Virus record (IMG/VR): IMGVR_UViG_3300024509_000012
Source of the DNA: an uncultured virus (IMG/VR IMGVR_UViG_3300024509_000012)
Lineage: Duplodnaviria; Heunggongvirae; Uroviricota; Caudoviricetes
Reading direction: 5' to 3' (one strand)
Length of the DNA: 64,000 bases
The stretch's first letter is position 1, and every line of letters begins with the position of its first letter. Shown piece after piece: positions 9,170 to 63,301 of the stretch. The notes below the pieces were generated by a model. The model made no database searches and was not told where the DNA came from. It saw only the letters and a list, made by a program, of their open reading frames with translations. A program made the translations under genes and the position numbers.

Positions 9170-9177
9170 TATTTATA
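9170..9177 (-). promoter_or_regulatory. T4-type late promoter upstream of the tmRNA
   Basis: Exact TATAAATA on the minus strand; gp55 is in the window. Confidence 0.7.
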
Positions 9178-9188
9178 TGGTTTAATCA

Positions 9189-26382: not shown

Positions 26383-26417
26383 TTGACAACCTGACCAAAC
26401 TGTGAGATACTAACAAT

Positions 26418-27419: not shown

Positions 27420-27444
27420 GGGCCACCTGTGGTATAATATAATC

Positions 27445-27630: not shown

Positions 27631-27636
27631 TAAACT

Positions 27637-27828
27637 ATGATCAAGAAATCAATCTACAAAAGAAATATTTGGTCTGGGACTGGGTCTTGGTCTTGGTCTT
27701 GGTCTTGGTCTGGGTCTAGGTCTAGGTCTATGTCTGGGTCTGAGTCTGGGTCTTGGTCTGGGTCTTGGTCTAGGTCTGGGTCTATGTCTGGGTCTAGGTC
27801 TTGGTCTTGGTCTGGGTCTGGGTCTTGA
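27637..27828 (+). CDS. (Ser-X)n repeat microprotein, copy 2
   Basis: MIKKSIYKRNIW + (SX)n. Confidence 0.7.
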   Translation: MIKKSIYKRNIWSGTGSWSWSWSWSGSRSRSMSGSESGSWSGSWSRSGSMSGSRSWSWSGSGS

Positions 27829-27859
27829 CGAACACATCAGCCTGTGGTATGATATAATC

Positions 27860-28027
27860 ATGAAGAAATCAAGAACACAAAAATTTAAGTCTTGGTCTGA
27901 GTCTATGTCTATGTCTATGTCTGGGTCTTGGTCTGGATCTTGGTCTGAGTCTGAGTCTATGTCTAGGTCTGGATCTTGGTCTGAGTCTGAGTCTATGTCT
28001 AGGTCTTGGTCTGGGTCTAGGTCTTGA
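27860..28027 (+). CDS. (Ser-X)n repeat microprotein, copy 3 (55 aa, not in ORF track)
   Basis: MKKSRTQKFK + (SX)n; TTGACG-17-TATGAT-6-ATG. Confidence 0.7.
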   Translation: MKKSRTQKFKSWSESMSMSMSGSWSGSWSESESMSRSGSWSESESMSRSWSGSRS

Positions 28028-28058
28028 CAAACACACAGAAAGGTGCTAATATAGTTTC

Positions 28059-28268
28059 ATGATGAAATCACGCATTTCAAGAGTGTGGACTGCATCCAGG
28101 TCTGGGGAAAAATCAATCCCTTGTTCCGGTATTAGAACTGGTTCTTGTTATCGACAAATCACTTTCACCGGAAAGTGGGCAAGAGTCCGTTCTTATATGA
28201 AATTGTGGTATGGATTGAAAACTTCAAAAATTGAGTTGACAACTAACCTGAAAGGTGCTAAGATATAA
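28059..28268 (+). CDS. basic hypothetical protein, leaderless
   Basis: Own promoter starting 28024. Confidence 0.5.
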   Translation: MMKSRISRVWTASRSGEKSIPCSGIRTGSCYRQITFTGKWARVRSYMKLWYGLKTSKIELTTNLKGAKI

Positions 28269-28270
28269 TC

Positions 28271-28480
28271 ATGAGTAACGAACAACTGCACGACCTCATT
28301 AACGAATATGTAGAATTGATTGTTGATACAATGGACATGGAGGATCTCATCAATCATGCCTATGAATCCATTCATGCACGTTTGGAGCAGATGGGGACTG
28401 AAGATATTCTGGCAGAAATCACAGAAGTTGCCCCTGAACTCTTGACAGACGACATGGAATCTGGTACACTGGAACAGTAG
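28271..28480 (+). CDS. acidic hypothetical protein
   Basis: Own promoter; D/E-rich helical pattern. Confidence 0.65.
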   Translation: MSNEQLHDLINEYVELIVDTMDMEDLINHAYESIHARLEQMGTEDILAEITEVAPELLTDDMESGTLEQ

Positions 28481-28488
28481 AGGAAAAC

Positions 28489-28707
28489 ATGATTAACGAT
28501 CTGACTGTAAAAGAATTGGATTTGCTGACTCAGGTTTATGCAACCAAGTTGGTTGAATCTATGAGTGAATGGGAACTGGCAGAAATTGTTGAAGGTTCCT
28601 TCGTTGATGAATTTCGGAAAATGCCGCTGGATGAATACAAGGAACATTTTGATATTCCTGCATTCAAAACTGCTGTTGATATCGACAAGGGCTTGCGTAA
28701 GAAGTAA
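28489..28707 (+). CDS. hypothetical protein
   Basis: GAGG SD; co-oriented. Confidence 0.6.
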   Translation: MINDLTVKELDLLTQVYATKLVESMSEWELAEIVEGSFVDEFRKMPLDEYKEHFDIPAFKTAVDIDKGLRKK

Positions 28708-28769
28708 TTCTGTGGTATACTAGGGTTGTGAGTGAGAGAAACTCACAACCCACAAAAAAGGATATAAAT

Positions 28770-28967
28770 ATGGTAAAGCTTGAAAGTTCCGCTGTTTCTG
28801 GTGTTGGTTATGACCACATCAATCAGATTCTCACTGTGAAGTTTACTTCCGGTAAGAAGTATGACTACAAGGACGTTCCTGTTCAGGTCTATGAGGATCT
28901 GGTGAACGCACCTTCTTCTGGAAAGTTTCTGAACAAGGAAGTCAAGGGCAAGTATCAGACTGCCTAA
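28770..28967 (+). CDS. KTSC-domain protein
   Basis: SSAVSGVGYD....L.V.F.SG..Y.Y..VP..VY..L..A.S.GKF. Confidence 0.9.
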   Translation: MVKLESSAVSGVGYDHINQILTVKFTSGKKYDYKDVPVQVYEDLVNAPSSGKFLNKEVKGKYQTA

Positions 28968-28975
28968 AAGTTTTT

Positions 28976-29050
28976 GGCCCTGTCGTTCAATGGATAGGAC
29001 ATAGGTCTTCTAAACCTAGAATCGGGGTTCGAATCCCTGCGGGGCTACCA
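28976..29050 (+). tRNA. tRNA-Arg (UCU)
   Basis: Cloverleaf; anticodon arm TAGGT-CT TCT AA-ACCTA; GTTCGAATC T-loop; encoded CCA. Confidence 0.93.
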
Positions 29051-29060
29051 AATTTAATGT

Positions 29061-29136
29061 GCGCTCATAGCTCAGTTGGTAGAGCATCTGACTTTTAATC
29101 AGAGGGTCGCAGGTTCGAACCCTGCTGGGCGCACCA
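29061..29136 (+). tRNA. tRNA-Lys (UUU)
   Basis: Cloverleaf; TCTGA-CT TTT AA-TCAGA; GTTCGAACC; encoded CCA. Confidence 0.95.
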
Positions 29137-29180
29137 AAATTCTTCTTGACAAACATCCTGAATGGTGATAAGATTTAATC

Positions 29181-29642
29181 ATGGGACTTGATCAATACAT
29201 CAACCGCAAGAGCTACATTCAGAATTGGTCTTTCGACAAGGAAAACAAGTATGAAGTTGTTGTGACCAACAACGGACAACCTACCCACATCAAGAAGGAT
29301 AAAGTCACCTATGTGACTGAGGAACTTGGTTATTTCCGCAAGTTCAATGCACTCCACAACTGGTTTGTGCAGCTTGCTGATGGTAGGGATGAATGTCAAG
29401 AAATTATTTTCTATGAGGAAAATGTTGACAATCTTCTTTTAACCATGAAAGAAGTCCTGATCTCTAAGAGAGAAGATATTGCTCTTGAAATGTTTCCTCC
29501 TGTTTCTGGGTTTTTCTTTGGTTCCATTCAAATTGATGAGTGGTACTGGAACGACCTAGAAAGTGCCATCAAACTTTTCCAGGAAATCAAGGATGAATGG
29601 GTTGATGGTCGAACGACCTATTACTACCAAGCATCCTGGTAG
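29181..29642 (+). CDS. conserved phage hypothetical protein
   Basis: MGLDQY...YFRKFNALHNWF...GFFFGS...YQASW; own promoter. Confidence 0.75.
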   Translation: MGLDQYINRKSYIQNWSFDKENKYEVVVTNNGQPTHIKKDKVTYVTEELGYFRKFNALHNWFVQLADGRDECQEIIFYEENVDNLLLTMKEVLISKREDIALEMFPPVSGFFFGSIQIDEWYWNDLESAIKLFQEIKDEWVDGRTTYYYQASW

Positions 29643-29701
29643 TTTGCAGGGGGAAGAAATTCCCCCTTGACATTTCACCTAGAATGTGAGAGAATAAAAA
29701 C

Positions 29702-29896
29702 ATGACCAAGAAATCAATCTACAAAAGAAATATTTGGTCTAGGTCTGGGTCTGAGTCTCAGTTTGCGTCTTGGTCTGGGTCTAGGTCTTGGTCTAGGTCT
29801 GAGTCTGGGTCTTGGTCTGTGTCTTGGTCTGGGTCTGGGTCTTGGTCTGGGTCTTGGTCTGCGTCTGGGTCTGGGTCTAGGTCTGAGTCAAAATAA
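29702..29896 (+). CDS. (Ser-X)n repeat microprotein, copy 4
   Basis: MTKKSIYKRNIW + (SX)n; TTGACA-17-GAGAAT-6-ATG. Confidence 0.7.
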   Translation: MTKKSIYKRNIWSRSGSESQFASWSGSRSWSRSESGSWSVSWSGSGSWSGSWSASGSGSRSESK

Positions 29897-29934
29897 ACCT
29901 TGACATTCTGATCAGAATGTGAGAGAATAAAAAC

Positions 29935-30285
29935 ATGAGAGTTAAAGTCTACTTCAACCTTCACAAGAAAGTTTTCTCTGTCATGGACAAAAAAACCCGC
30001 AAGGTTATTGCCCACACCGACACCATCATCCTGAAAAATGCCAAGTTCACTGTTTCCAAGTCTGGACGGGAACGTGTTCTTCGTGAAAAAAAGAAAAATG
30101 TTCATGCCTTTGTTGAAGGTGATTGGCAAAAAGACCAAGAGCTTTTCCTGAAAAGGAACACGGTTCGTTACAATCCCTATGAGGCAGATTACTTCATCAA
30201 TGTCCTCACCGGAAAGAAAATTGAAACTTCCGCCTGGTGTGACCTCTTCATCGAAAACGGAAAGGCAAATATCTATGCTTATTAA
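29935..30285 (+). CDS. conserved phage hypothetical protein
   Basis: VYFNLHK..FSV...GRERVLREKKKNVHAFV.G...YNPY. Confidence 0.75.
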   Translation: MRVKVYFNLHKKVFSVMDKKTRKVIAHTDTIILKNAKFTVSKSGRERVLREKKKNVHAFVEGDWQKDQELFLKRNTVRYNPYEADYFINVLTGKKIETSAWCDLFIENGKANIYAY

Positions 30286-30509
30286 CTGGAACGACTACAA
30301 AGATCATGACGACTACCAGGAGTATGACTGGGACGACTAATATAGAATAGCATTTCTTGGGCCGGAAACGGCCCTTCCTGCCCTTAAAATTTCTAGCAGG
30401 TAGTTGGAGGCTAGAAAAACAAAAAACAAAAAACTTGACAAATCACACAGGGTGTGAGATACTAAAAGAGTCAGAGGAAATCTGACAAGAAAAAAGGAGA
30501 AAACTGATT

Positions 30510-30776
30510 ATGAAGAAGATTGTGACTGAGGTTCAGGGTGAAGGTCTTGTGGCCCTTCTTGGTGAGCACGTGATGTTGTTCTGTGCGAACTACATCTATG
30601 CTGGTACGCTCACTGGAGTGAACGATACCTGTGTCCTTCTGGACGATGCCAAGATTGTTTATGAGACTGGTGCGTTCAGCGATTCGAAGTACAAGGACGC
30701 TCAGAACCTTCCCACGAAGACTTGGTATGTGCAGACTTCTGCAATTGAGTCTTTCGGCATCGGTAAGAAGGGTTAG
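30510..30776 (+). CDS. Sm/LSm-like fold protein (predicted)
   Basis: LVALLGEHVMLF...YAGTLTGVND..VLLDDA (Sm1-like) and WYVQTSAIESF (Sm2-like); promoter, leader hairpin, SD and terminator. Confidence 0.6.
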   Translation: MKKIVTEVQGEGLVALLGEHVMLFCANYIYAGTLTGVNDTCVLLDDAKIVYETGAFSDSKYKDAQNLPTKTWYVQTSAIESFGIGKKG

Positions 30777-30812
30777 TGGTTTGGGGGAGAAATCCCCCAA
30801 ACTTTTTTGTTT

Positions 30813-30971
30813 ATGATCAAGAAATCAATCTACAAAAGAAATATTTGGTCTATGTCTAGGTCTGGGTCTTGGTCTTTGTATGGGTCTAGGTCTGGGTCTA
30901 GGACTTGGTCTAGGTCTTGGTCTGGGTCTAGGTCTTGGTCTGTGTCTAGGACTTATTCTGAAATTGGATAA
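30813..30971 (+). CDS. (Ser-X)n repeat microprotein, copy 5 (52 aa, not in ORF track)
   Basis: MIKKSIYKRNIW + (SX)n + YSEIG. Confidence 0.65.
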   Translation: MIKKSIYKRNIWSMSRSGSWSLYGSRSGSRTWSRSWSGSRSWSVSRTYSEIG

Positions 30972-30977
30972 TAAACT

Positions 30978-31175
30978 ATGATCAAGAAATCAATCTACAA
31001 AAGAAATATTTGGTCTTGGTCTATGTCTGGGTCTAGATCTAGGTCTTGGTCTAGGTCTGGGTCTGGGTCTTGGTCTGGGTCTGGGTCTGGGTCTTGGTCT
31101 GGGTCTGGGTCTTGGTCTGCGTCTGGGTCTTGGTCTAGGTCTATGTCTAGGTCTTGGTTTAGGTCTACAAAATAA
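30978..31175 (+). CDS. (Ser-X)n repeat microprotein, copy 6
   Basis: MIKKSIYKRNIW + (SX)n. Confidence 0.7.
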   Translation: MIKKSIYKRNIWSWSMSGSRSRSWSRSGSGSWSGSGSGSWSGSGSWSASGSWSRSMSRSWFRSTK

Positions 31176-31388
31176 TGCTTGACAACCGAAAAGAAAGGTG
31201 CGATAATAATATCATGATGAACGATGTGATTGACGATCTGATTAGCGGAAACATGAAGGTAATCGGTCTGATGAACCTGATTATTAGCAGGTTCGATGAA
31301 AACGACGATGATTACCTGAACGCTCAGGCTATTATCGACTTTGTGACGATGCAGATTTTGGTTTTGTCTACGTTAAAGGATAATCAAA

Positions 31389-31508
31389 ATGCTGCAAAAG
31401 CTTAGTGTTTGGTTTTGTCGGGAATTCCACACAAAGATGACCAGACCTGTTAATGGTCATTACAGTTGCCTTGAATGTGGTAAGAAATACAAATCACCTT
31501 TTAACTAG
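31389..31508 (+). CDS. 39-aa putative Zn-binding microprotein (not in ORF track)
   Basis: MLQKLSVWFCREFHTKMTRPVNGHYSCLECGKKYKSPFN; AAGGA SD. Confidence 0.6.
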   Translation: MLQKLSVWFCREFHTKMTRPVNGHYSCLECGKKYKSPFN

Positions 31509-31516
31509 GAGAAAAA

Positions 31517-31720
31517 ATGCGGCACAGTATGGAAATTTGCTACAGAATTTGGAATGATGACACAGGTGACCATATTGCAGTCACAGATGATGCTGATGGA
31601 CTTGGGTTGTTTGAGATTCGCCAACATGACGATCAAGGAAAAATTATGAGTAGAATCACCTTGTCGAAAGAAGAATTACCTTTAATTATCAGTGCCTTAC
31701 AAAAAAAACTTGAAGAGTAG
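31517..31720 (+). CDS. hypothetical protein
   Basis: AGGAG SD. Confidence 0.65.
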   Translation: MRHSMEICYRIWNDDTGDHIAVTDDADGLGLFEIRQHDDQGKIMSRITLSKEELPLIISALQKKLEE

Positions 31721-31755
31721 TTGACATTGTGAAGAACACATGGGATAATAACAGT

Positions 31756-31893
31756 ATGGTTGAACACATCAAGCTGCCCAAGTTTAATCCTGCTAAGATC
31801 CGGTCTGGTGTAAAGACCGGATCTATTATCCAGGACAAGAAAACCAAAAGCAAGAATTATCGCAAGCGCAAGCACAAGAAGGAGGAAGAATAA
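31756..31893 (+). CDS. 45-aa basic microprotein, leaderless (not in ORF track)
   Basis: TTGACA-17-GATAAT-6-ATG; ends DKKTKSKNYRKRKHKKEEE. Confidence 0.65.
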   Translation: MVEHIKLPKFNPAKIRSGVKTGSIIQDKKTKSKNYRKRKHKKEEE

Positions 31894-32108
31894 TGCTTTA
31901 CAATGAGTATGAAGCAAAAACTCTTGAAGGTCAACAACTTGCGGATGAAGTGTATGAAGCATTGAAACCCATTGTAATCAATTGGCAACAAAAGGGTTAC
32001 AAGTTGCGGGAAATCCAGACTGTGATTGATTCTGAAGTTTTTTTAATGATTTCTGAAGCTGTTCTGGTTGCCGCAACAAAAAAGAAAAAACTTGGTTCTT
32101 GGGGTTGA
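31893..32108 (+). CDS. hypothetical protein
   Basis: TAATG coupling with GGAGG SD. Confidence 0.65.
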   Translation: MLYNEYEAKTLEGQQLADEVYEALKPIVINWQQKGYKLREIQTVIDSEVFLMISEAVLVAATKKKKLGSWG

Positions 32109-32602
32109 CAAACCCCTCAGACTGTGAGATGATGGATTCATGACAAGAAAAGAACTTCGACTCAAATATCTTACGTTTTTCATGGCGGGTTATCTTTTCG
32201 GTGTGATTATTATTTTTTTCGCCATGAAAGCAGATTGTGCAATTAAGTAGTTGACAAATTCCCCAGACTGTGAGATGATGGATTCATGAAACGGCTTATC
32301 AGTGATTCGATGTTTGACATTCTGTTGATTGTCCTGGTTGTTTCTTTGTTTTCTATTGCATTTCCGACTGTGCTGGATTTTTCGAAAGAGTTGAAAAAAA
32401 CTCTTGACATCCCCAAAACTTCTGTGGTAAAGTAAAAACATGAGCAAACAACACCTGATGCTTTCGATTCTGAACTGCCCCAACTGCAAACGGAACGTTT
32501 GTGACTTTCACAAAAACTTGAAAAATTCTGTTGACAACCGGAAAAAGGTTGTGGTAAAGTAAAAGAGTCAGGGCAAGAGCCAGGACAAAAGGAGAAAAGA
32601 CC

Positions 32603-32866
32603 ATGTTTCTGAAGAAAGTTAAGTTTTCGACCCTCCCTATCAAGCGTTTCCTGGTTGGTGACCTTCCTGGGAATTTCAATCCTGAAAATGTTGTAGAATC
32701 TGAGACTTACGCTGGTGCTGTTGGTGACTGGATTGACTTGGGTATGAATGAAACTGAAGTTTATGCTCAGATTGGTGAAGACTACTTCCCCATCACGTTC
32801 CACACTGATGGTTCTGACACTGCCACTCTGGAACGTGGGGTGTTTGAACGCCGAATCGCTGAATAG
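32603..32866 (+). CDS. acidic hypothetical protein
   Basis: Promoter, leader hairpin and AAGGAG SD. Confidence 0.7.
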   Translation: MFLKKVKFSTLPIKRFLVGDLPGNFNPENVVESETYAGAVGDWIDLGMNETEVYAQIGEDYFPITFHTDGSDTATLERGVFERRIAE

Positions 32867-32923
32867 CAAAAAAACTTCAAGTGGGGGGTTGACAAACCCC
32901 CCAGAATGTGAGAAACTAAAAGT

Positions 32924-33247
32924 ATGAAATTCTTCCATTTTTCTCAAAATAATTCAGGTGGTCATTTCACCGGACCAGCAAAACACGTTGTTGTTGAGGC
33001 TGAAAACGCCGAAGATGCGAACAATCGTGTTTTAGAAGTAGAGGGTGTTTACTTCGATGGTTGTGATTCTGGCGTTGACTGCCCTTGTTGCGGTGATCGC
33101 TGGTCCAGCAAATGGTCTGGTGAAGTTGGCGATGATGTCCCGTCTACTTATGGTGATCCTGTTGTTTTTGGTGATGGTGATGGTGATGGTGATGTTTTAG
33201 TGGTTTACGCAAACGGTGAAAAAAAGAGGGGACTTTTTCACTGGTAA
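32924..33247 (+). CDS. conserved phage hypothetical protein
   Basis: F.QNNSGG...YFDG...DCPCCGDRW; leaderless. Confidence 0.75.
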   Translation: MKFFHFSQNNSGGHFTGPAKHVVVEAENAEDANNRVLEVEGVYFDGCDSGVDCPCCGDRWSSKWSGEVGDDVPSTYGDPVVFGDGDGDGDVLVVYANGEKKRGLFHW

Positions 33248-33285
33248 CTGTTGACAAACCCCCCAGAATGTGAGATACTAACAAT

Positions 33286-33522
33286 ATGAAGAATCCATTC
33301 GGCAAAACTGCCAAGATTGACAATCCTCATATGATTTTCAAGAGTTTTGATGGTTCCTGGGAATGGCGTGTTCTCAAGACCTATCAGACTCCGGAAAAGG
33401 AAAAGCAAAACCCCTTCGCTCGCTGGTACTGTGCGGTGAAGTCTCCAATGACATATGGAACGTTTGATGTGGGCGATGTCTATGTTGCTGAAATCAAACA
33501 GGTTGCGGTTCAGGTGAAGTAA
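33286..33522 (+). CDS. conserved phage hypothetical protein
   Basis: WEWRVLKTYQ...ARWYCAVKSP.T.G..D.GDVY; leaderless. Confidence 0.75.
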   Translation: MKNPFGKTAKIDNPHMIFKSFDGSWEWRVLKTYQTPEKEKQNPFARWYCAVKSPMTYGTFDVGDVYVAEIKQVAVQVK

Positions 33523-33637
33523 AGTGTGGGGGGCGAAAATCCCCCACAAAAAAACAAAAAAAGTTGTTGACTTCCCTGCTACAACGTGCGATACTAAAAG
33601 AGTCAGGGCAAGAGCCAAGACAAAAGGAGAAAACGGA

Positions 33638-33856
33638 ATGTTTGAAGACTACGACACCTACGAGTTCTACGAAAACGACCTGGAAGAAATGGGTCGGAAT
33701 GAAGCCTGGGAAGATGCTCAGGCTGAAATGGCCGACATCTATGATTCTGACGATTTCCAGGACTATCCTGAAGATCCTAGTTTTGAGCTGGAGGACCAGC
33801 ACCTGGATTCGATGTATGAATCGCAGTATGAGTCTTACGACTACTACGGGGAATAG
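33638..33856 (+). CDS. highly acidic 72-aa protein
   Basis: 27 D/E residues, one R, no K; promoter, leader hairpin and SD. Confidence 0.7.
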   Translation: MFEDYDTYEFYENDLEEMGRNEAWEDAQAEMADIYDSDDFQDYPEDPSFELEDQHLDSMYESQYESYDYYGE

Positions 33857-33894
33857 GTGATTCCTGGGCCGGAAACGGCCCTTCCTGGGGTTTT

Positions 33895-33987
33895 GGGTGT
33901 CAGGGGTACCCCTGACACCCCTCAGAGAATGGCAACAGAAAAAACTTCTAGTTTTCATCATTTTTCTGTTGCCATTCTCTGAGGGGT
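33895..33987. repeat. 26-bp perfect palindrome overlapping a 27-bp inverted repeat
   Basis: gggtgtcaggggtacccctgacaccc (33895-33920); arms 33917-33943 / 33961-33987. Confidence 0.9.
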
Positions 33988-34003
33988 CGTGGTAATATAA
34001 ATC

Positions 34004-34219
34004 ATGGTTGAAAAACAGAAACTTGAAATCAACACCTTTGACCGTGGCAGCATCTACTGCTTCACTGAGTTTTTGCTGAATGGCACACTGGTTGCTGATT
34101 GGAACCCTAAGAAAAAAGAACTGATGTTGTTTTCTGAAGAGAAGATTTCCTTAGTTCCCTGCAAAACTTTGCAGTCTGCGATTTCCAAAGTTGTGAAATT
34201 TCACAAAAAGTTGTTCTAG
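34004..34219 (+). CDS. hypothetical protein, leaderless
   Basis: TTGCCA...TAATAT-6-ATG. Confidence 0.6.
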   Translation: MVEKQKLEINTFDRGSIYCFTEFLLNGTLVADWNPKKKELMLFSEEKISLVPCKTLQSAISKVVKFHKKLF

Positions 34220-34257
34220 GGGTTGACAAACCCCTTCCAGTATGGGAGAATAAAATC

Positions 34258-34539
34258 ATGAAAAGCGATTTGCAGGAATTTCTCGAAGATTGTGGTTTTG
34301 AGTGCAGGGGCTATTCTGGCCGTTATATGGGTGGCAAATCTTGCCTTGCCATTGTGGTTGACACAATGGCTGAGATTTTGGATGTGATGTATGAAATGGG
34401 ACGTAGAAACGTTTACGTCCCAACCAATGTGAAATGGGATAACATGGGTTATGGATATGTTTTCTACTGGCCGGGAGTTGAGTTTGTGGGTGATGTAGAA
34501 AATGAGGATGGTGGCGATGAGGGGATGGGGGAGGAATAA
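34258..34539 (+). CDS. hypothetical protein, leaderless
   Basis: YSGRYM.GK.CL...DNMG...V.YWP; own promoter. Confidence 0.7.
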   Translation: MKSDLQEFLEDCGFECRGYSGRYMGGKSCLAIVVDTMAEILDVMYEMGRRNVYVPTNVKWDNMGYGYVFYWPGVEFVGDVENEDGGDEGMGEE

Positions 34540-34641
34540 CCTCCCCCAAGAAAAAAAGTTCTGAAAACTGTTGACAAGCAACCGAACCTGTGAGATACTA
34601 AAAGAGTCAGGGCAAGCCTGATAGAAAAGGAAAAAACGAAA

Positions 34642-34905
34642 ATGCAGATGACCTTCAACTTCCAGACCGCTTCCTTCCAGAATGAGAAGGGTGCGATTCA
34701 GAACACCCCCAACACTGGCTACCAGATTCAAGTTGGTGTGGACAAGTCCAAGTACACCACGATCAATCTGGTGGACTCCAATCTTGGGGCTGTTATGTAC
34801 CTCTACAACCAGATTGTTGCTGAGAATGGCAATAAGAAGCGTGTTCGCAATCAGGTGACGGGCAAGATTATCGCCCGTCACATCAGCAAGAAGGTGGGGC
34901 AGTAG
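34642..34905 (+). CDS. hypothetical protein
   Basis: Promoter, leader hairpin, SD and terminator. Confidence 0.7.
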   Translation: MQMTFNFQTASFQNEKGAIQNTPNTGYQIQVGVDKSKYTTINLVDSNLGAVMYLYNQIVAENGNKKRVRNQVTGKIIARHISKKVGQ

Positions 34906-34910
34906 CCCCA

Positions 34911-35014
34911 CCTTTTAATTAAGTCCTTTTCCGTCAATGCGTAAGGGTCGTTTGTACCCCTCCAAAAGTATTGATGACCTACGCATAATGCCGGAAAAGG
35001 ACTTAATTAAAAGG
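34911..35014. repeat. perfect 23-bp inverted repeat with imperfect inner extension
   Basis: ccttttaattaagtccttttccg (34911-34933) / cggaaaaggacttaattaaaagg (34992-35014). Confidence 0.9.
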
Positions 35015-35069
35015 AAATTTGAACACATCAGGTTGACAACCTGAACACATCGTGCTAAGATAGGAACAT

Positions 35070-35264
35070 ATGACACCCACGCCTGAGATTGTCGCCTCAA
35101 TTCAAGAGAAGTTCAGATCATATGATGCGAAGATTATTCTCGCAAACATGCGTTGGTCTAACTTGTGGGAACATTGGTTGTTTGATTGGGCCGGAATGAG
35201 TTGGCAAGTTGACCAATGGGGGCAAGTTAAGTTAAATTCTGCGAAGTTTGTTTGGGAAGATTAA
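35070..35264 (+). CDS. Trp-rich hypothetical protein
   Basis: Own promoter 35033-35061. Confidence 0.6.
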   Translation: MTPTPEIVASIQEKFRSYDAKIILANMRWSNLWEHWLFDWAGMSWQVDQWGQVKLNSAKFVWED

Positions 35265-35280
35265 CTGGTAGTTCCTTTGC

Positions 35281-35450
35281 CTACCAGTACCACTAGTACC
35301 GTCTGGTCAACGGTACTAGTACTGCGGATGGGCGCATTAGTACTAACTGGTCACTAGTACTAGTACGCCCATCCCCTTCCGATAGTACCACCAGGACCAA
35401 TAGTACCAGACCTGGCGAGGTACTAGTACTGGCACCAGGACCGATAGTAC
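35281..35450. repeat. GTAC/TAGTAC motif cluster
   Basis: 12 GTAC tetramers in 170 nt, including three GTACTAGTAC palindromes. Confidence 0.85.
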
Positions 35451-35507
35451 CAAAATTTTTTTTGTTTTTTTCTTGACATTTTTTTCTGACCTTGATACCA
35501 TTGACTC

Positions 35508-35723
35508 ATGGAACAAAATTACATTGAAGAAAAAATCATGACGGTCTATCACAACGGGAATGAATATAATTTAATCCATTCCCGTTGGGAGTGGAACGGT
35601 GAAAAATATGAGCATTTCGATTTGATGTTGGGACATCATGTTGGTCACTGGAACTATTGCCCGTTGTACCGTGAGATGATTGAAGTCATTGAAGATATGG
35701 AAAATAATGAAAATGGGGATTGA
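35508..35723 (+). CDS. hypothetical protein, leaderless
   Basis: TTGACA...TACCAT-6-ATG. Confidence 0.6.
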   Translation: MEQNYIEEKIMTVYHNGNEYNLIHSRWEWNGEKYEHFDLMLGHHVGHWNYCPLYREMIEVIEDMENNENGD

Positions 35724-35923
35724 CAATCCCCATTTTTTCATGAGAGAATAACAGTATGAAAAACAACGTTATCAATATGATTTTGGATGCGCTATCATTC
35801 GTTTTCCTTATGGGGGGTATTTATGGAATTTATGTAGTTTTTTCGTGGTAGGGTATTGCAGTTTAGTTCTGGCCTATGGTAATCTATAAGAGTTGAGGCC
35901 AGCGCCAAACAGAAAAGGAAAAA

Positions 35924-36544
35924 ATGACCATTTTTCGTATGACCAACGATTTCATGACCAACATCCTCGCCGTCTACAATATGGCGACGCCGGAAGAAAA
36001 ACGCTCCGGGGGTGCATGGTACACCGCCGCCCACGAACAATTACGGGTTATTGCCCGTGTTTCTAACTTTTCGTTCGATGCGGTAGTTGATGCAACTGCC
36101 GCATTATCGCCGGGTATCCGTTGGACTTCAAATTTGAATGGAATTGATATTTTGGCCGACGCTATCGCTAACGATAAGCCGTTATCGTTAGTGTCCGGTG
36201 TTGCGGGCTATCGTCGCAACATCGACAAGGCAGCTGCTATCCTGTTAGCAGACAAACGGAACGAACCGTTTCGCCATATTTTGAGCGGTCCCAAGGTTAC
36301 GGCTTTTGCTGATAACCTCCGCAACGGTGATAAGAACGGTGACGATAAGGTTACCGTAGACGTTCATGCCTATAGCGTTGCGGTAGGCTATCGCTACACT
36401 GTAGCGACAATGCCGCATATCGCAGAACGGGAACGTTCTGCGATTATTTCCGCATACCGGATGGTAGCGGGAATTGTTGGTTTGTCCGCATCTCAGGTTC
36501 AAGCTATTACTTGGGTGACGTGGAAACGAATCCACGGGATCTAA
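35924..36544 (+). CDS. conserved phage protein, GC-richer (HhH-glycosylase-like by inference)
   Basis: G..WY..A, AALSP...W..N, GPKVTAF..N, VTVDVHA, QAITW. Confidence 0.7.
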   Translation: MTIFRMTNDFMTNILAVYNMATPEEKRSGGAWYTAAHEQLRVIARVSNFSFDAVVDATAALSPGIRWTSNLNGIDILADAIANDKPLSLVSGVAGYRRNIDKAAAILLADKRNEPFRHILSGPKVTAFADNLRNGDKNGDDKVTVDVHAYSVAVGYRYTVATMPHIAERERSAIISAYRMVAGIVGLSASQVQAITWVTWKRIHGI

Positions 36545-36670
36545 TCCCGTCATGACGGGAAACGAAAAAAATATCGTTTCCCGTCATTTTTCGTTTGATT
36601 CTGTCCGATAGTGTGGTAATCTATAGGTGTAGGGGATACACCACTACAGAAAAGGAAAAGGAAAAGGAAA

Positions 36671-36877
36671 ATGACCAACAATTTCGAATTTGACGATTTC
36701 GACACGCAGATTAACTGCGAGGAAATGTCCGGTCCTACGGATCAGGAATTGCAGGAAATGATGGCTGAGGGGGAATGGAACTTTCCGGAGTTTGAGCCGG
36801 AATGGGACGGTGAATCGGTCGAAGAATTGACCGATATTTTCAAGGCGTTGGGTTTCAACGTTATCACGTTTGAGTAG
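36671..36877 (+). CDS. acidic hypothetical protein
   Basis: Promoter, leader hairpin, repeated AAGGA SD and terminator. Confidence 0.7.
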   Translation: MTNNFEFDDFDTQINCEEMSGPTDQELQEMMAEGEWNFPEFEPEWDGESVEELTDIFKALGFNVITFE

Positions 36878-36942
36878 AAAAAAAGGGGGGAAACCCCCTT
36901 TTTTTCATTGACAGAAACCACGTTTTCATGGGAGAATGAATT

Positions 36943-37179
36943 ATGGAAAAGTTACTGAAGATGTTGAATGACCGCAACTCCGCCAGCAAAATTTTGCTGG
37001 CGTATGCTGATTTAATTGTGGGGAACGAAAACAATCCCGAATTTTTTCAAACGATTCTGGATAATCTCCGGATTGATCCTTACTATAAGATGAGCGACGA
37101 TCACCGTGATTGGGTTTTGGGTGAGGCCCAAACTATACTCAAACAATCATGCGACTGGTGGCTGGCAAAAGGGGCTTAA
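36943..37179 (+). CDS. hypothetical protein, leaderless; last gene of the + array
   Basis: Own promoter; ggggc-ttaa-gcccc-tttt terminator. Confidence 0.65.
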   Translation: MEKLLKMLNDRNSASKILLAYADLIVGNENNPEFFQTILDNLRIDPYYKMSDDHRDWVLGEAQTILKQSCDWWLAKGA

Positions 37180-37419
37180 GCCCCTTTTGGTACTAGTACT
37201 AACACAACCTTAAAGTGGGAGTACTAGTACTCCCCCGGTAGGGTATTATGTATTATCCCCCACTTTAAAAAACTTTATTTCTTTTCCCCAGAAAACACAC
37301 CCAACCTAACACAATCTAAAAAAATAAAAAAATTCCCCCCAAAATTTTTCCCGCCAAAAATTTTTCCCCCAGAATTTTTTCCCCAGATGTTTTTATTCTG
37401 GTGGAAACACCAGATGTTT

Positions 37420-37992
37420 TTATTCTGGTGGAAACACCAGATATTTACACAAGTAATAACTATCTACCAAATCTGATACAGGTGAAGATATTTTAATTTT
37501 CTTTTTTGAGAATGTTTCTTTTAGCTTTAACTGTGTTTCTTCAAAAAATTTATCATACATATCATCTTTATTGCTTCTACCTGAACTTGTTGCATATTTC
37601 TTTAATGTGGTAGGAGCAATTTTTTGATATTTGTAATTTTCCACTTCTAACATATATTTCATTATTCCACAATTTTCTGCTAATTCAAATATCTTACCTT
37701 TTGATCCAAATGAATAATCTTCTATGATTATCATAGTTTCTGGATAATCATATGCTTGTTTTGTTATATCAATGCATCTAATTGTCCAGTTTGCTATTAA
37801 GGTAAATCTGTTGATTGGGGATTTGTAATTTTCTGGTGGTGTTGTTTGGTGTACAAATTCAAGAGGAGAAATTTGTTTTGTTTTGTTGTAATAAAAGAAA
37901 TTGCACATTCTAGGATCAAAAGATTTTTTGTCTCCATAGAATGTGCAAATTGAGGGTGATGTTATAGAATAATCAATTCCAATATAAAGCAT
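37420..37992 (-). CDS. RuvC-like Holliday-junction resolvase
   Basis: IGIDYS, IEDYSF, PTTLKKYAT..G..NKD, SDLVDSY. Confidence 0.82.
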   Translation of the reverse strand: MLYIGIDYSITSPSICTFYGDKKSFDPRMCNFFYYNKTKQISPLEFVHQTTPPENYKSPINRFTLIANWTIRCIDITKQAYDYPETMIIIEDYSFGSKGKIFELAENCGIMKYMLEVENYKYQKIAPTTLKKYATSSGRSNKDDMYDKFFEETQLKLKETFSKKKIKISSPVSDLVDSYYLCKYLVFPPE

Positions 37993-38007
37993 TGATGTAC
38001 TTCGTCA

Positions 38008-59221: not shown

Positions 59222-59868
59222 AGAGATTTGCGAATTTTCATCAGACGAATTAACATTTTTTCATCTTCTTTTTCATATTTATTTTCGATTTTTGTTACTT
59301 TTTCAAATACTGCACTTTCTTTCTTAGTGAATGGTTTCATAGTATAAGTATTACTTCCTTCTTCTCTTATAAAATGTTCAGATAAGTTTTTATCTTTAAA
59401 AACTTCATCATAACCAGCTTCAATATATGGATCTGGTCTATTTGGTCTAGTTACTTTCCACCAAGTATAAAGTTCTAAAATTTCTTTTGCTGATTTTGTT
59501 TGATGTTCTAATTGAGATTCATTAATTTCCCAATTTAGATATGCAATTCCATCTTGGGGTGAACGGAATCTGCAAAATTTCTTTTGAAACCAAGACAACT
59601 TAGAATATGCACTATCATCAGTCCATGTATTCATCCATGCTTTTTCAATTTCAACAAAATCAACAAGAAGCTTGAAATTAACATGTAAAATGAGTTCACC
59701 TGTGTCATAATATCCAGGTTTTAAACCACTATTTACAATATAATATCTTCTAGTTGTTCTATATCTAATAGAATTCAAGATATTATGATATCTATATTTT
59801 ACACTATACATAATATCTTCAAATTTATCTTTCCAATAATTTTTTGGTTGCATTTTCAATCCTTTCAT
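59212..59868 (-). CDS. conserved phage hypothetical protein
   Basis: F.LLVDFVE.E, EI.ELY.WW...RP.R, MLIRL.KIR..LWT. Confidence 0.7.
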   Translation of the reverse strand: MKGLKMQPKNYWKDKFEDIMYSVKYRYHNILNSIRYRTTRRYYIVNSGLKPGYYDTGELILHVNFKLLVDFVEIEKAWMNTWTDDSAYSKLSWFQKKFCRFRSPQDGIAYLNWEINESQLEHQTKSAKEILELYTWWKVTRPNRPDPYIEAGYDEVFKDKNLSEHFIREEGSNTYTMKPFTKKESAVFEKVTKIENKYEKEDEKMLIRLMKIRKSLWT

Positions 59869-60040
59869 CTAACTCTTCAATTGGTGAATAACCATTTCCA
59901 ACTCTATGTGCATAGGACCATTTACAAATATTTCTTATTAAATTATTTAGTTTTTCTGAATCTAGTGTAACTTCTGCATAGAGTTGGATTCTATGCAGAA
60001 GTTCTTCGTAGATTTCTATCTTTTGTTCATTTGTCATCAT
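59825..60040 (-). CDS. hypothetical protein
   Basis: WSYAHRVGNG motif; packed in operon. Confidence 0.65.
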   Translation of the reverse strand: MMTNEQKIEIYEELLHRIQLYAEVTLDSEKLNNLIRNICKWSYAHRVGNGYSPIEELDERIENATKKLLER

Positions 60041-60041
60041 A

Positions 60042-63000
60042 TTAAAAATTGACTCTTAGACTTAACTGTAACTGTCTAGAAGTTCCCAGACCAACAGTTT
60101 TATCTAGTGTTGATTGTACTGTTCCGAATGCTGCTCCTTTTGTTGCATTTGAATAAACCTGTCCAGGTTGTAGTGTATTAGACTGACCAATTCTGGATGG
60201 AATTGCATTTGGTAATTGTGCTGGAGGATTTGCAAAATTTACATTATTAAAGATGTTATATAATTCTGTTCTGAAAATTAAATTATATTTGTCTTTAGTG
60301 TAAATCTTTTTCTGAAGAGTTAGATCTGCTTGGAAAAGCATTGGACCTCTTAATGAGTATCTAGAAGCATTTCCAAAAGTTCCAGGCATTGGTACTGAGA
60401 AAGCAGCAGGATTCAAGAAAATTGTTTTATCAGAATTCTTGATATATGGCGAAACTCCTAATACATAATCAGGTCTGCGGATTTGTCTTGTTTGACCACC
60501 ACCAGGAACATTAATAACAGCTACAGAATTAGACCCTACAGAACTATTATAGTACATTCCAGATGATTTGTCAAAGAAGATAATATCGTTTCTGACGATT
60601 AATGGATCAAGAGGAAGACCTGATCTGGTATTGATAACAGAACCGATCTGCCATGTTTTCCATTCATACAATCCAACAACATTTAAATTATGACGAATAT
60701 CCGCCGCATTATTACCATAATCAGTTCTCCAATTATAAGGATTTGCAACAGTTACAGTTTCATTTGAGCCACCAGATGAACCGATTGATCTTCCCCATGT
60801 GTATGATGCACCATAAGTTAGACCACTCTTTGTTTTTCTGTTTAGAGTTGCCTGTAAAGCATTATAATGATCATTACCACCTGATGTCTTTACGTCAACT
60901 TCAGCAAATCTATCACCCCATTGTCTCTTTACAGTTCCAGTAGGAGTTACATCTGTGATTAGATTTCCAAGAGTTCTAATAAACAGATTTCTACCAAGAG
61001 AACCAACATATGCAACAGTTAAAACATTATCTTTAATTTGTTGTTGAACTGATGCTGTATATGAGTAAACAGTTTCCGGAATATTATAACCAGAAGAATA
61101 AGCTCTTGGTTGAAATCGAAGATTTGGATCATTGATATTGTAAGAAGCAATAATTGAAGTAGGATTAATTGGATAAGTTGTATTAGTTATAGTCTTACTA
61201 ACACGATCAGATTCAAATGGTTGAATTAGATCTTCTGGTTGTCCAGGTCCAAAATAAACACCAGTTCCTACACGAAATACAGTCTTACCATTTAGAGATT
61301 TTGGACTCCAAGTTCCAGATAATCTTGGTGAAAAATTATCTTTATTTGAACGATAGACAGGAAGATTATTTGGTAAAATGTTTCCTGTTTCTGGTGACCA
61401 ATTAACTAATAGATTTCTCTTTTCTTTGAAAACTGAATAGAATTCATATCTAATTCCATAATTAACAGTAAAGTTAGAAAATACTTTCCATTCATCTTGT
61501 GCATAACCAATTAGATAATTCTGAGTAATTTGTCTTTCTCCAGTTGCTCCATTATTAAACGGAGAAGGTGCAGAAAGATCTCCCAAAAATTGAATTTGTA
61601 ATGGACGATTATTAATTAGATCTTCTACGTTTGAGAAGCTATAAGTTGTACCACCAAGACGATCTGTAAATAAACGGATAAATCTTAATTCTCCACCAAA
61701 CTTAAAATTATGAGAAGAATTAATCCATGAAAAATTATCAATCAAAGTAATTGAAGTATTAGTATAAGGTTGTCCACGTCCATTTGTAGCAGAATTTGAT
61801 CTTACTAGACCACCAGCAGTAGCAAATCCTGTGCTTGAACCTTGTGTTGTAATACCAGATAAAGCAACGCCACCAGTTAGATTAATTGAAATATCTGCTG
61901 GATTAAAGTTATTTACAATTGGTGCAGTTCCCCATGCTCTTGTTTTATAAGCATTTAATCCAATCTTGGTTTCATTAATTTTCTGTGGCGAGATAATCCA
62001 TTGAACATTTGCTACAGCATTTTGTGGGACCGCAGTAACATCAATAGAATTTCCAGTAACACCTAGTGGTTGAATTGACTTACCATTATCTCTGAAGTAA
62101 CGGAAATATCCAGAAAGATTATCTGAAATTTTTGAATCTAATCTTAGACCAAACGAATTTTCATCTACAGTCTGTTTTCTATCAATAGCAACAATAGAAG
62201 CATTTGGATCTGTTGTTGGAATATTTCCAACTGGATAAAGTGCTAGAAGATTTCTAACTTGTGGAACTGCTCTTGCTTTTGCTGATTCTGATGGAACAGC
62301 TTCTCTAAATGGAACTGATTGTCTCTGCCTTAGACCTTCATATGAAGCAAACCAAAAAGTCTTATCTTGCTTTACTGGACCGCCAATAGAGCCACCAAAT
62401 TGATTTAGACGTAAAGGATTCTTAGTAGCATCAAAGAAATTTCTAGAATCTAATACATTATTTCTAAGATATTCAAAAACACCACCATGAATCTTATTAC
62501 CACCAGACTTAGTTACAATTGTGATTTGACCACCAGTTCCTGTACCATATTCTGCTGGATAATTATTAGATTCAACACGAAATTCTTGAACATTTTCCAT
62601 TGAAGATTGTAATCTAAAAAATGAAGAAATCTGTCCATTTAGATTACCTGGAGAAGCATCAATAATAGAAGATCCTTCAATACCATCATATCTAATAGCA
62701 TTTTGCTGATTAGATCTACCGCTAAACTTAATATTATCAAATGTACCACCACCAGCAGTTGAAGCGCCTGGAGCTAATAGATATAACTGCGAAATTTGTC
62801 TACCATTTAGTGGCAGATTTGAAACTTCTCTTTCAGAAACATTAACACCAATCTTCGCTGAGGATGTATCAATAGATGTAACTTCGCCACCTTCAACAAT
62901 AATTTCAGTCTTAATAATTTGAGGTACTAAGATGAAATTAATACCAATAGATTCATTAACTAATAGTTTAATTCCTGTTTTCTGTGTATTTGCAAAACCA

Positions 63001-63227
63001 GGAGCAGAAGCTTTTACATTATAAGATGAAGCAGGTAGATTTGTGATAATGTATTCACCAACTTCATTTGTTACAACTTCTCTTACAGATCCAGTTTTTT
63101 CGTTCTGAATCTTAACAGTTGCACCAATAATTACTTCTTCATTCTTATCAAAAATCTTTCCTCTAATAGAAGCTTCTTGACTGAATAGGCTAGTCGTTAA
63201 TAAAAATAAACTTAATAAATATTTCAT
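60042..63227 (-). CDS. TonB-dependent / Oar-like outer-membrane receptor with N-terminal carboxypeptidase-regulatory-like domain
   Basis: Signal peptide; G.Y.I..L....Y.V...APGF; LPLNGR; VQEFRV..NNY.AEYG; TKSG.N..HG..FEY.RN; YAQDEWK; R.LQL..R..F C-terminus. Confidence 0.92.
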   Translation of the reverse strand: MKYLLSLFLLTTSLFSQEASIRGKIFDKNEEVIIGATVKIQNEKTGSVREVVTNEVGEYIITNLPASSYNVKASAPGFANTQKTGIKLLVNESIGINFILVPQIIKTEIIVEGGEVTSIDTSSAKIGVNVSEREVSNLPLNGRQISQLYLLAPGASTAGGGTFDNIKFSGRSNQQNAIRYDGIEGSSIIDASPGNLNGQISSFFRLQSSMENVQEFRVESNNYPAEYGTGTGGQITIVTKSGGNKIHGGVFEYLRNNVLDSRNFFDATKNPLRLNQFGGSIGGPVKQDKTFWFASYEGLRQRQSVPFREAVPSESAKARAVPQVRNLLALYPVGNIPTTDPNASIVAIDRKQTVDENSFGLRLDSKISDNLSGYFRYFRDNGKSIQPLGVTGNSIDVTAVPQNAVANVQWIISPQKINETKIGLNAYKTRAWGTAPIVNNFNPADISINLTGGVALSGITTQGSSTGFATAGGLVRSNSATNGRGQPYTNTSITLIDNFSWINSSHNFKFGGELRFIRLFTDRLGGTTYSFSNVEDLINNRPLQIQFLGDLSAPSPFNNGATGERQITQNYLIGYAQDEWKVFSNFTVNYGIRYEFYSVFKEKRNLLVNWSPETGNILPNNLPVYRSNKDNFSPRLSGTWSPKSLNGKTVFRVGTGVYFGPGQPEDLIQPFESDRVSKTITNTTYPINPTSIIASYNINDPNLRFQPRAYSSGYNIPETVYSYTASVQQQIKDNVLTVAYVGSLGRNLFIRTLGNLITDVTPTGTVKRQWGDRFAEVDVKTSGGNDHYNALQATLNRKTKSGLTYGASYTWGRSIGSSGGSNETVTVANPYNWRTDYGNNAADIRHNLNVVGLYEWKTWQIGSVINTRSGLPLDPLIVRNDIIFFDKSSGMYYNSSVGSNSVAVINVPGGGQTRQIRRPDYVLGVSPYIKNSDKTIFLNPAAFSVPMPGTFGNASRYSLRGPMLFQADLTLQKKIYTKDKYNLIFRTELYNIFNNVNFANPPAQLPNAIPSRIGQSNTLQPGQVYSNATKGAAFGTVQSTLDKTVGLGTSRQLQLSLRVNF

Positions 63228-63301
63228 AGATTCCTTTGTTACAATTTAATTAATTTTTTTACCCCTAAAACACTTATCGGGAACCATTGGTTCCCGATTT
63301 T

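Follow-up and report, generated by a model that had tools for sequence, protein, structure and literature searches.

The minus strand of a 64,000-nucleotide stretch of DNA from an uncultured virus of the Caudoviricetes (IMG/VR record IMGVR_UViG_3300024509_000012), which we refer to as the window, carries at 60042..63227 a large gene for a predicted TonB-dependent transporter (TBDT) of the Oar type. The assignment draws on the open reading frame (ORF), on matches to the Pfam models PF13620 and PF25183, and on an AlphaFold2 (AF2) model that was compared with known structures in VIA-align and Foldseek. The ORF is uninterrupted, opens with ATG, encodes 1061 amino acids followed by a stop, has zero internal stops and ends in ...LSLRVNF. 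PF13620 (CarboxypepD_reg) matches residues 20-100 with 65.7 bits against a cut-off of 32.3 (E 5e-18), and PF25183 (OMP_b-brl_4) extends over the remainder with 439.6 bits (E 3.8e-131); PF07715 (Plug) is sub-threshold, at 15.9 bits against a cut-off of 23.9 (E 0.019). NCBIfam gives the protein no specific name, and PHROGs has no family for it at E<=1e-5. A first-pass annotation of this DNA had described a complete ORF running from a signal peptide to a terminal Phe, and the reading frame, the domains and Phe 1061 bear that description out.

The protein appears to be built of five parts, all encoded on the minus strand. A putative signal peptide, recognized by reading alone and helical over residues 2-14 in the model, occupies residues 1 to ~17 (MKYLLSLFLLTTSLFS/QEAS; 63177..63227). 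It is followed by an N-terminal extension at residues 20-100 (62928..63170), the CarboxypepD_reg beta-sandwich of PF13620, whose strands are modeled over residues 19-100 with local confidence (pLDDT) of 81-87. A candidate TonB box, TEIIVEG, lies at residues 107-113 (62889..62909) in a disordered linker (residues 103-126) and aligns with the cellular consensus QEVTVSG. Conservation and a structural alignment with BtuB place the plug domain at residues ~127-240 (62508..62849), and the barrel matched by PF25183 fills residues 247-1061 (60045..62489), with 22 beta-strands counted in the model and a terminal Phe that is invariant in 96 sequences.

The AF2 model, computed from 96 homologues (pLDDT 77.1, pTM 0.72), has a confident sandwich (19-100), the disordered linker (103-126), a low-confidence plug (127-240) and a confident barrel (247-1060), whose strands, 22 long ones by our own count, are joined by periplasmic turns of 2-8 residues and by long outer loops. 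Profile searches of PDB sequences detected no transporter; fold comparison gave matches. With Foldseek, 256 PDB chains matched at E<=0.001; the 50 best were TBDTs without exception, led by FusA (3.8e-26) and then YddB, PirA, FepA, Cir, PfeA, FpvA and SusC. In VIA-align the model superimposed on BtuB with a Z of 29.7 and an rmsd of 2.6 A over 523 of 549 residues, covering BtuB residues 6-594. Since this alignment spans both plug and barrel, both appear to be present in the transporter. The alignments with BtuB begin at model residue 109-111, which corresponds to BtuB residue 6, a position that we take to be the start of the BtuB TonB box. By its domains and modeled fold, the protein is thus a member of the TBDT superfamily and of its Oar-type subclass.

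The genes around the transporter are phage genes on the same strand, assigned with Pfam and PHROGs: Hsp20, ORF120 (a small structural-like ORF), the transporter, ORF71, ORF218 and a gene for a GH19 lysozyme-like enzyme, beyond which lie a gp43-like DNA polymerase, UvsX and a gp41-like helicase. Elsewhere the window encodes primase, NrdAB, thymidylate synthase, gp46/47, the late sigma factor gp55, PhoH and RnlA. With the DNA polymerases of cyanomyophages and of viruses from marine single cells, the polymerase shares only 45-47% identity, and so the carrier, a freshwater phage, is of an uncultured aquatic T4-like lineage. At third codon positions, the transporter gene has a GC content (GC3) of 0.134; the values for 12 further AT-rich genes of the window, core and neighboring, span 0.085-0.245. 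The total GC of the transporter gene, 0.335, is slightly higher on account of second codon positions (GC2). The earlier statements that the gene is co-oriented with its phage neighbors and written in the AT-rich codons of the phage therefore hold, its GC3 falling inside the range of the core genes. It was also fair to call the gene an unusual cargo, as the transporter protein had a single weak match, at 25% identity, among 50,697 phage records and falls in no PHROG family.

The locus is not the product of faulty assembly. The window belongs to a 124-kb virus record (G001) estimated to be 69% complete, and the 90%-identity cluster of the protein is recorded from 9 contigs, the longest having 145,884 bases. 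An identical locus occurs under four contig names (L002, L003, L090, L091) in viral and metagenome collections; some of these are possibly one assembly, and for three of them the comparison with the window took in both flanks. A 5-kb stretch of the locus is contained, in whole or part, in 20 public runs. In X9, a DNA run that comes from a separate study and was made in another year, a single 18,609-nt contig spans 54831-64000 at 95-99% identity and crosses both junctions. The several contig names, the virus record and the X9 contig rule out a chimeric assembly, and the continuity across both flanks that the first-pass annotation had proposed to check is seen in a run unrelated to the window.

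At least four divergent T4-like lineages, recovered from viral and metagenome contigs, carry the transporter. Lineage A is the window itself (100%, GC 0.31), with the order Hsp20-transporter-ORF71-ORF218-GH19-polymerase. Lineage B (L004, L006 and L092-94; 96.7% amino acid identity, GC 0.33-0.34) has the order of A minus ORF71, and its polymerase, UvsX and helicase are 45%, 30% and 52% identical to those of the window. Lineage C (L095; 79%, GC 0.32) has the order of A including ORF71, with a polymerase identity of 40%. In lineage D (L007, L008, L009 and L096-L100; 70-72%, GC 0.45-0.55), the gene adjoins an RnlA-like gene and an ORF71 homologue, in a wider context of DHFR, ThyA, 2OG-oxygenase and collagen-like tail-fibre genes. 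The GC3 of the transporter gene tracks that of its carrier, being 0.13-0.15 in lineages A to C and 0.47-0.58 in D; in bacterial homologues it is 0.50-0.94. The gene is phage-resident, with a composition that matches every carrier phage, and this supports the earlier argument against host contamination.

ORF71 (59825..60040, minus strand) encodes 71 amino acids with the motif AHRVGNG and starts 1 nt past the stop codon of the transporter gene. Homologues adjoin the transporter in L095 (9885-10100, 66% amino acid identity), in L007 (7923-8141) and L008 (39%), and in L098 (9677-9928) and L097 (42%), so that ORF71 accompanies the transporter, downstream or upstream of it, in three of the four phage lineages (A, C and D) and is missing in B. 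We considered ORF71 as a known partner of the transporter and rejected it: it has no Pfam or PHROG family and zero matches in phage isolates.

Might the barrel serve the phage as a way out of the cell rather than into it? The Oar protein of Myxococcus xanthus, namesake of the Oar-type transporters, is reportedly needed for protease secretion, and the phage protein shares the Oar-type architecture. An export or lysis accessory of this kind would pass a phage protein, such as the GH19 lysozyme-like enzyme or ORF218, across the outer membrane (OM), and the order transporter-(ORF71)-ORF218-GH19 is indeed kept in lineages A, B and C. Phages of this group also bear other OM channels, such as the CsgGF of Melnitz mentioned in a passage of the paper on that phage (PMC9004378). 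In lineage D, however, the gene adjoins neither GH19 nor ORF218, and the bacterial relatives described below stand in uptake contexts. We consider a role in export or lysis very improbable.

A homologue search with the window protein returned a tight group at 69-100% identity and then, after a gap, thousands of bacterial proteins at no more than 63%; the homologues above 50% identity likewise number in the thousands. For the phylogeny, 232 sequences (120 proteins and 112 full-length locus genes) were reduced to 216 distinct ones over 1077 columns, and an unrooted neighbor-joining tree was built from Kimura distances with 100 bootstraps. The 18 phage-type sequences form one clade (bootstrap 100), 5 of them (P0002, P0004, P0007, P0008 and P0009) being classed as phage-type by clade and identity only. 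The sister group is P0012/P0013/P0014 (bootstrap 92), followed by P0010/P0011 (bootstrap 100). P0012 has the source label Bryobacteraceae and was located in a genome of that order (Bryobacterales). The best 80 loci from species-representative genomes are nearly all from Acidobacteriota, none exceeding 57% identity, and members of the bacterial subfamily are 50-63% identical to the phage clade. The phage clade is thus monophyletic and nested within TBDTs of Acidobacteriota (Bryobacterales), and the simplest history would be one capture from Acidobacteriota followed by spread among phages.

One structural change sets the phage clade apart. All 18 of its proteins have a deletion of ~12 residues after residue 855 (window ~60660-60665), where the bacterial relatives carry the motif ELPFGKGRKY...AADA..LGGW. 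The model places the deletion in the periplasmic turn that joins strands 846-856 and 859-868. It is the only sizeable clade-specific change.

The transporter gene is under purifying selection and is not decaying. The ratio of nonsynonymous to synonymous divergence (dN/dS, Nei-Gojobori) is 0.11 between lineages A and B and, within lineage D, 0.087 between L007 and L009 and 0.135 between L007 and L008. Comparing dN/dS among phage copies had been put forward as a check on decay, and the values of 0.09-0.13 speak against decay. The plug is the best-conserved stretch of the protein, with a column conservation of 0.92-0.99 in the phage clade over residues 121-240, and such strong conservation favors a working transporter over a mere surface decoy. 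These results also bear on the idea that the gene is a functionless passenger, or a piece of host DNA fused to phage sequence during assembly. All that speaks for it is how seldom phages carry such genes; against it stand the cluster of 9 contigs, the several contig names, the virus record and the unrelated run that reads across both junctions, together with the presence of the gene in four divergent lineages, its phage codon usage and the purifying selection. As far as sequence allows, the idea is refuted, and we give it hardly any credence.

The nucleotide comparison of lineages A and B reveals a second aspect of the history of the gene. From 63273, 46 nt 5' of the start codon, to 60041, the base past the stop codon, the two are 95.2% identical, and on either side of this block identity falls to 66-76%. 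The synonymous divergence (dS) between A and B is 0.152 for the transporter gene, against 1.00 for Hsp20, 0.86 for ORF218, 1.03 for GH19, 1.61 for the polymerase and 1.27 for the helicase. Since selection on the protein cannot account for silent sites, the low dS of the transporter gene reflects recent exchange. Two phages that are otherwise very divergent, with DNA polymerases only 46% identical, have thus recently exchanged the gene, in a unit that begins just past a terminator-like hairpin with a 10-bp stem (63276..63298) between ORF120 and the transporter gene. The long residence in phages that had been proposed for the gene accordingly applies to the phage clade as a whole and not to the allele in the window, which was exchanged lately (dS 0.15 against 0.86-1.6).

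TBDTs are common phage receptors, and the first-pass annotation had offered receptor replacement or superinfection exclusion as one of two readings of the gene. The phage copy would replace or outcompete a transporter of the host, or be shed as a decoy, and thereby block the adsorption of competitors. Several observations fit this possibility. The structures of FhuA-T5 and FhuA-Llp are among the structural matches to the model, the gene has been exchanged among co-occurring phages, and the two last outer loops, with 15% of the residues, account for 13 of the 35 positions at which the proteins of A and B differ (binomial P 9e-4). All outer loops together, however, hold 19 of the 35 changes where 43% would be expected (P 0.13) and are not enriched. 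Moreover, a dN/dS of ~0.1 and the high conservation of the plug and TonB-box region fit transport rather than a passive decoy, and the one deletion specific to the clade maps to a turn on the periplasmic side. Receptors remaining on the debris of lysed cells would presumably also trap the phage's own progeny. Remodeling of the cell surface therefore strikes us as improbable, if less so than a role in export.

What the transporter might import is suggested by its bacterial relatives. Neighbor annotation covered 115 ORFs, two per side, at 29 bacterial loci (out of 158 ORFs at 40 loci). The recurrent neighbors were OmpR-type regulators (7 of 29 loci), histidine kinases (10 of 29) and PstS-type binding proteins (5 of 29), along with genes for the Pst permease and ATPase and a putative porin; no iron, glycan or peptide genes were recurrent at these loci. 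NCBIfam models were matched above cut-off for PstS in L053, L118 and L042, for the PstS family in L048 and L134, for PstB and PstC in L051 and for PstA in L048. PhoB was the top NCBIfam match for 7 of 7 regulators, yet stayed under its equivalog cut-off; PnpS or PhoR was in the top three matches for 10 of 10 kinases, with PnpS above cut-off once. A tblastn tally over 91 non-redundant bacterial loci found pst genes at 16, PhoB/PhoR-like pairs at 26 and either at 30, and where each flank reached 4 kb or more, one or the other was present at 17 of 43 loci. An alternative recurrent context has rpsL-rpsG upstream and an alpha/beta hydrolase gene downstream.

The upstream regions of the bacterial genes point in the same direction. 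Within 250 nt upstream of the transporter genes, no hexamer is as enriched as TGTAAC, which is present in 34 of 86 regions and in 1 of 86 coding controls. In 29 TGTAAC-anchored sites, further half-sites are found at -21 (TTCAC) and at -10 ((T/G)TnAT), so that three (G/T)T(C/A)A(C/T) units, spaced at an exact 11-bp phase, make up the bacterial element, which lies ~30 nt ahead of the start codon. Half-sites phased at 11 bp are a hallmark of binding by the OmpR/PhoB family. A matrix made from the 29 sites was run over the 91 bacterial loci (1.15 Mb) at a threshold of 11 bits and gave 200 matches, of which 86 lie before transporter genes, 7 before pstS (6 loci), 20 before phoB-like genes (10 loci) and 2 before phoR-like genes; 85 lie elsewhere, and some of these, on inspection, precede transporter genes whose start had been set too far upstream. 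The sites of pstS lie mostly 32-35 nt ahead of the start codon. As the element is common to pstS, to an autoregulated phoB and to the transporter, it is best interpreted as the bacterial Pho-box, and the bacterial relatives are best read, on this computational evidence, as members of the phosphate-starvation (Pho) regulon. Upstream of the sister gene P0012, the sequence reads TTCAC-N6-GTAAT-N6-GTCAC, 11 nt, TACCGT, 8 nt, ATG.

At bacterial loci such as L053 (9862-11701) and L152 (15180-17067), an unannotated ORF of ~600 amino acids with no Pfam or NCBIfam match lies between the transporter gene, or the kinase gene, and pstS, and it has a Pho-box-like site of its own upstream. A Porin_5-type gene is in a similar place in L118 and L134. 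The ~600-amino-acid ORF is possibly a further OM member of the Pho regulon.

The phage copies differ in how much of this element they retain. In lineage D, TGTAA[C/T/A] repeats at 11-bp phase, two in L099 and L100 or four in L007 and L098, lie ~40 nt before the start codon, and the two-repeat and four-repeat forms differ by a 22-nt indel that keeps the phase. The bacterial matrix ranks the site of lineage D 1st in L100 (8.5 kb; 16.0 bits, the next match scoring 9.3), 2nd in L098 (20 kb) and 3rd in L008 (23 kb). Lineage C has three phased units (matrix rank 5), and lineages A and B have two, pressed against the ribosome-binding site. The phased half-sites of the bacterial element are present in lineage D and in the sister gene and absent from the window copy, where the short upstream region (63228..63275, minus strand) holds the ribosome-binding site AAAGGA and the half-sites TTAAT-N6-GTAAC at 63238-63253. 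Lineage D may thus plausibly be under Pho control, for which the window copy gives no support; with the Pho element there degenerate, expression of the window copy is probably under phage control.

One candidate for a phage element in this region is GTGTTTTA, a MotA-box-like sequence (TGTTTTA) directly after the hairpin in lineages A and B, at 63260-63275 in the window and upstream of 10001 in L004, 12-13 nt before a TAnnnA/T hexamer. In sequence, GTGTTTTA resembles the MotA box of T4 middle promoters. Inside the transporter gene, at 60546-60574 (minus strand), lies a perfect sigma-70 consensus, TTGACA-17-TATAAT, ~500 nt before ORF71, and both of its hexamers are identical in lineage B. This internal site could drive ORF71, ORF218 and GH19.

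Contigs from three RNA libraries match the transporter gene at 99% identity or more. The depth of RNA-contig words on the gene is low, of the same order as on the polymerase gene and far below that on Hsp20. One RNA-library contig of 1151 nt runs from Hsp20 across the hairpin and 192 nt into the transporter gene; the RNA contigs of run X17 leave 1 of 30 gene bins uncovered, an observation to which we give no weight. The RNA contigs are compatible with transcription and are not proof of it, because they are strandless and RNA libraries can hold DNA.

How might such a gene benefit the phage? In our best explanation, it is a functional, host-derived auxiliary gene for uptake at the OM in an aquatic T4-like phage, with a phosphorus compound as the likeliest nutrient; we would put about equal weight on this account being right and on its being wrong. 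During infection, the host Sec machinery would export the transporter, the host BAM machinery would insert it in the OM, and the host TonB-ExbB-ExbD complex would energize it. The added gate would raise the influx of a scarce nutrient and thereby feed phage DNA synthesis. The gene would move between co-occurring phages as a one-gene cassette, with the GC-richer phage lineages apparently still bearing the Pho promoter element. Phosphorus is the likeliest nutrient because the phage clade descends from what appears to be a Pho-regulon subfamily of Acidobacteriota, and a role in phosphorus uptake fits the PhoH gene that PHROGs also identifies in the window as well as the known phosphate genes of T4-like cyanophages. 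An auxiliary uptake gene was the other reading of the first-pass annotation, and it is the better supported of the two; since the bacterial relatives seem to be Pho-regulon members, it can be sharpened to phosphorus, the substrate being inferred.

Several points weigh against this explanation. The Pho-box of the window copy was rejected as a candidate, being outside the top 5 matrix matches in 64 kb, and the pattern of two half-sites occurs 6 times in the window against 7.45 expected by chance. The 48 nt from the hairpin to the start codon contain no late-type TATAAATA, no sigma-70 consensus and no copy of the phage early promoter, and the RNA contigs may stem from DNA in the libraries. No pst or phoBR-like genes were found within the flanks examined at 61 of the 91 bacterial loci, and the neighborhood of the sister gene P0012 contains no pst or phoBR genes. 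TonB_C, ExbB and PstS-like genes were not found in the 124-kb record, which is 69% complete, the energizing host TonB is assumed, and no neighboring gene points to the substrate. The plug was modeled with low confidence (pLDDT 36-68), and the tree is distance-based only.

Some of these points lend themselves to a related possibility, namely that the transporter takes up another scarce nutrient, such as an iron complex, a peptide or protein, a glycan, a vitamin or nucleic-acid fragments, and that the link of its relatives to the Pho regulon was not carried over into the phages. The lack of a significant Pho-box in the window copy and the 61 bacterial loci noted above would fit it, as would the protein importers FusA and YddB among the top Foldseek matches; the published phage TonB-dependent receptors (TBDRs), in the passages cited below, are read as importers of carbohydrate or of iron and heme. 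On the other hand, the subfamily within which the phage clade lies bears the Pho-box, the sister gene included, lineage D phages retain the element, and the neighborhoods of the relatives show no recurrent genes for iron, glycan or peptides. Uptake of some nutrient other than phosphorus is in our judgment unlikely, though it deserves more weight than remodeling of the surface.

A more specific version of the phosphorus account would have a Pho-regulon TBDT captured once from Acidobacteriota, driven by the host Pho-box in the GC-richer phages, passed as a single-gene cassette to AT-rich lineages and rewired there to phage control, which would make it the first phage tool for phosphorus acquisition at the OM. 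In this scenario, the GC-richer donor and AT-rich recipient lineages would be 20 GC points apart, with hosts that are possibly different. We regard the full sequence of events as tentative, and would sooner expect some part of it to fail than the whole to hold.

With regard to known systems, the phage protein has the same domain order and length as the Oar-type TBDTs, with both Pfam models far above cut-off; it differs in that the window copy resides in a lytic-type phage and in the shortened periplasmic turn after residue 855 of the phage clade. The phage clade is nested in the putative Pho-regulon subfamily of Acidobacteriota (100/92) at 50-63% identity, and lineage D keeps phased TGTAAC repeats, whereas the window copy has no recognizable Pho-box, no pst or phoBR neighbors and a GC3 of 0.13 against 0.5-0.94. 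The pstS and phoA products of cyanophages act in the periplasm, as a binding protein and a phosphatase. In T4-like cyanophages, these phosphate-acquisition genes are described as being under host PhoBR control (PMC10976474), and they are likewise Pho-regulon uptake genes in a T4-like phage, just as lineage D has a host-type Pho-box. The cyanophage proteins are periplasmic, however, and the transporter of the window would act at the OM with TonB energy.

Phage-encoded TBDRs are a known kind, having already been reported, if sporadically and in scattered genome notes, for a megaphage and for phages of ammonia oxidizers. A passage of one paper describes a SusC-like gene in the marine megaphage Mar_Mega_1 (PMC9723777) and a passage of another six transporters in phages of ammonia oxidizers (bioRxiv 10.64898/2026.05.02.722434); a TonB-dependent receptor annotation also exists for a pelagiphage. 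In these passages (PMC9723777; bioRxiv 10.64898/2026.05.02.722434), the genes are also host-derived and are read as auxiliary uptake genes, but their subfamilies (SusC, siderophore, heme) and the types of phage differ from those of the window, and nothing in the passages points to a clade shared among phages, to selection or to exchange from phage to phage. Among cellular TBDTs tied to phosphate starvation, according to the passages concerned, are Flavobacterium transporters and SusCD-like 'Pus' complexes that are induced when phosphate is depleted (PMC8115612) and Caulobacter CC0171, which together with ElpS is a suspected phosphate-starvation transporter (PMC2996285). Their substrates are likewise unassigned in these passages, and the systems are those of cells, not viruses, in another phylum and subfamily. 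Among the neighbors of the phage copy, Pfam and PHROGs revealed no partner like SusD or ElpS, and no dedicated search for one was made. In the literature searched, supplementary tables aside, we found no description of an Oar-type clade across several T4-like lineages, nor of Pho-regulon descent, Pho-box retention or single-gene exchange of such a gene.

Two further features of the window deserve mention. At 8825-9210 (minus strand) lies a permuted two-piece transfer-messenger RNA (tmRNA) with the tag ANTNVLAMSAAA, matched by the Rfam models beta_tmRNA (99.8 bits, cut-off 84) and tmRNA_permuted (120.8). We considered the beta-type permuted tmRNA as a marker of the host; it was above cut-off in 0 of 5 Bryobacterales genomes, and as such tmRNAs are common in aquatic T4-like phages, as a passage of the Melnitz paper indicates (PMC9004378), it was dropped as a host clue. 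The second feature is a compositional island at ~26000-38000, with a GC of 0.40-0.45 against ~0.30 and a GC3 of ~0.52 against 0.1-0.2, which is densely filled with small plus-strand ORFs. A conserved early-type promoter, GTTGACAAAC...TGTGAGATACT, recurs in it 13 times, a few bases ahead of an ATG, and it also has 12-nt periodic repeats at 27.4-28.1, 29.6-29.9 and 30.8-31.2 kb, and genes for tRNA-Arg(tct) and tRNA-Lys(ttt) at 28976-29136. The island has the look of a module of early genes acquired from a phage of higher GC.

As for the bacteria from which the transporter appears to derive, the analysis supplies a testable Pho-box for Bryobacterales and would place a large, uncharacterized Oar-type subfamily in the Pho regulon, a placement that bears on what these abundant transporters import. 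For the phages, a dS of 0.15 against ~1 provides a clean natural case of single-gene exchange between very divergent genomes. To our knowledge, phage auxiliary phosphorus genes have so far been confined to the periplasm and cytoplasm (pstS, phoA, phoH), and a selected, 3.2-kb, energy-coupled gate in the OM would extend them to the first barrier of the cell. Such a gate would also imply infections long enough for new OM proteins to pay off. If the proposed history is correct, phages spread an energy-dependent gate for nutrients across phage lineages, and perhaps across host phyla.

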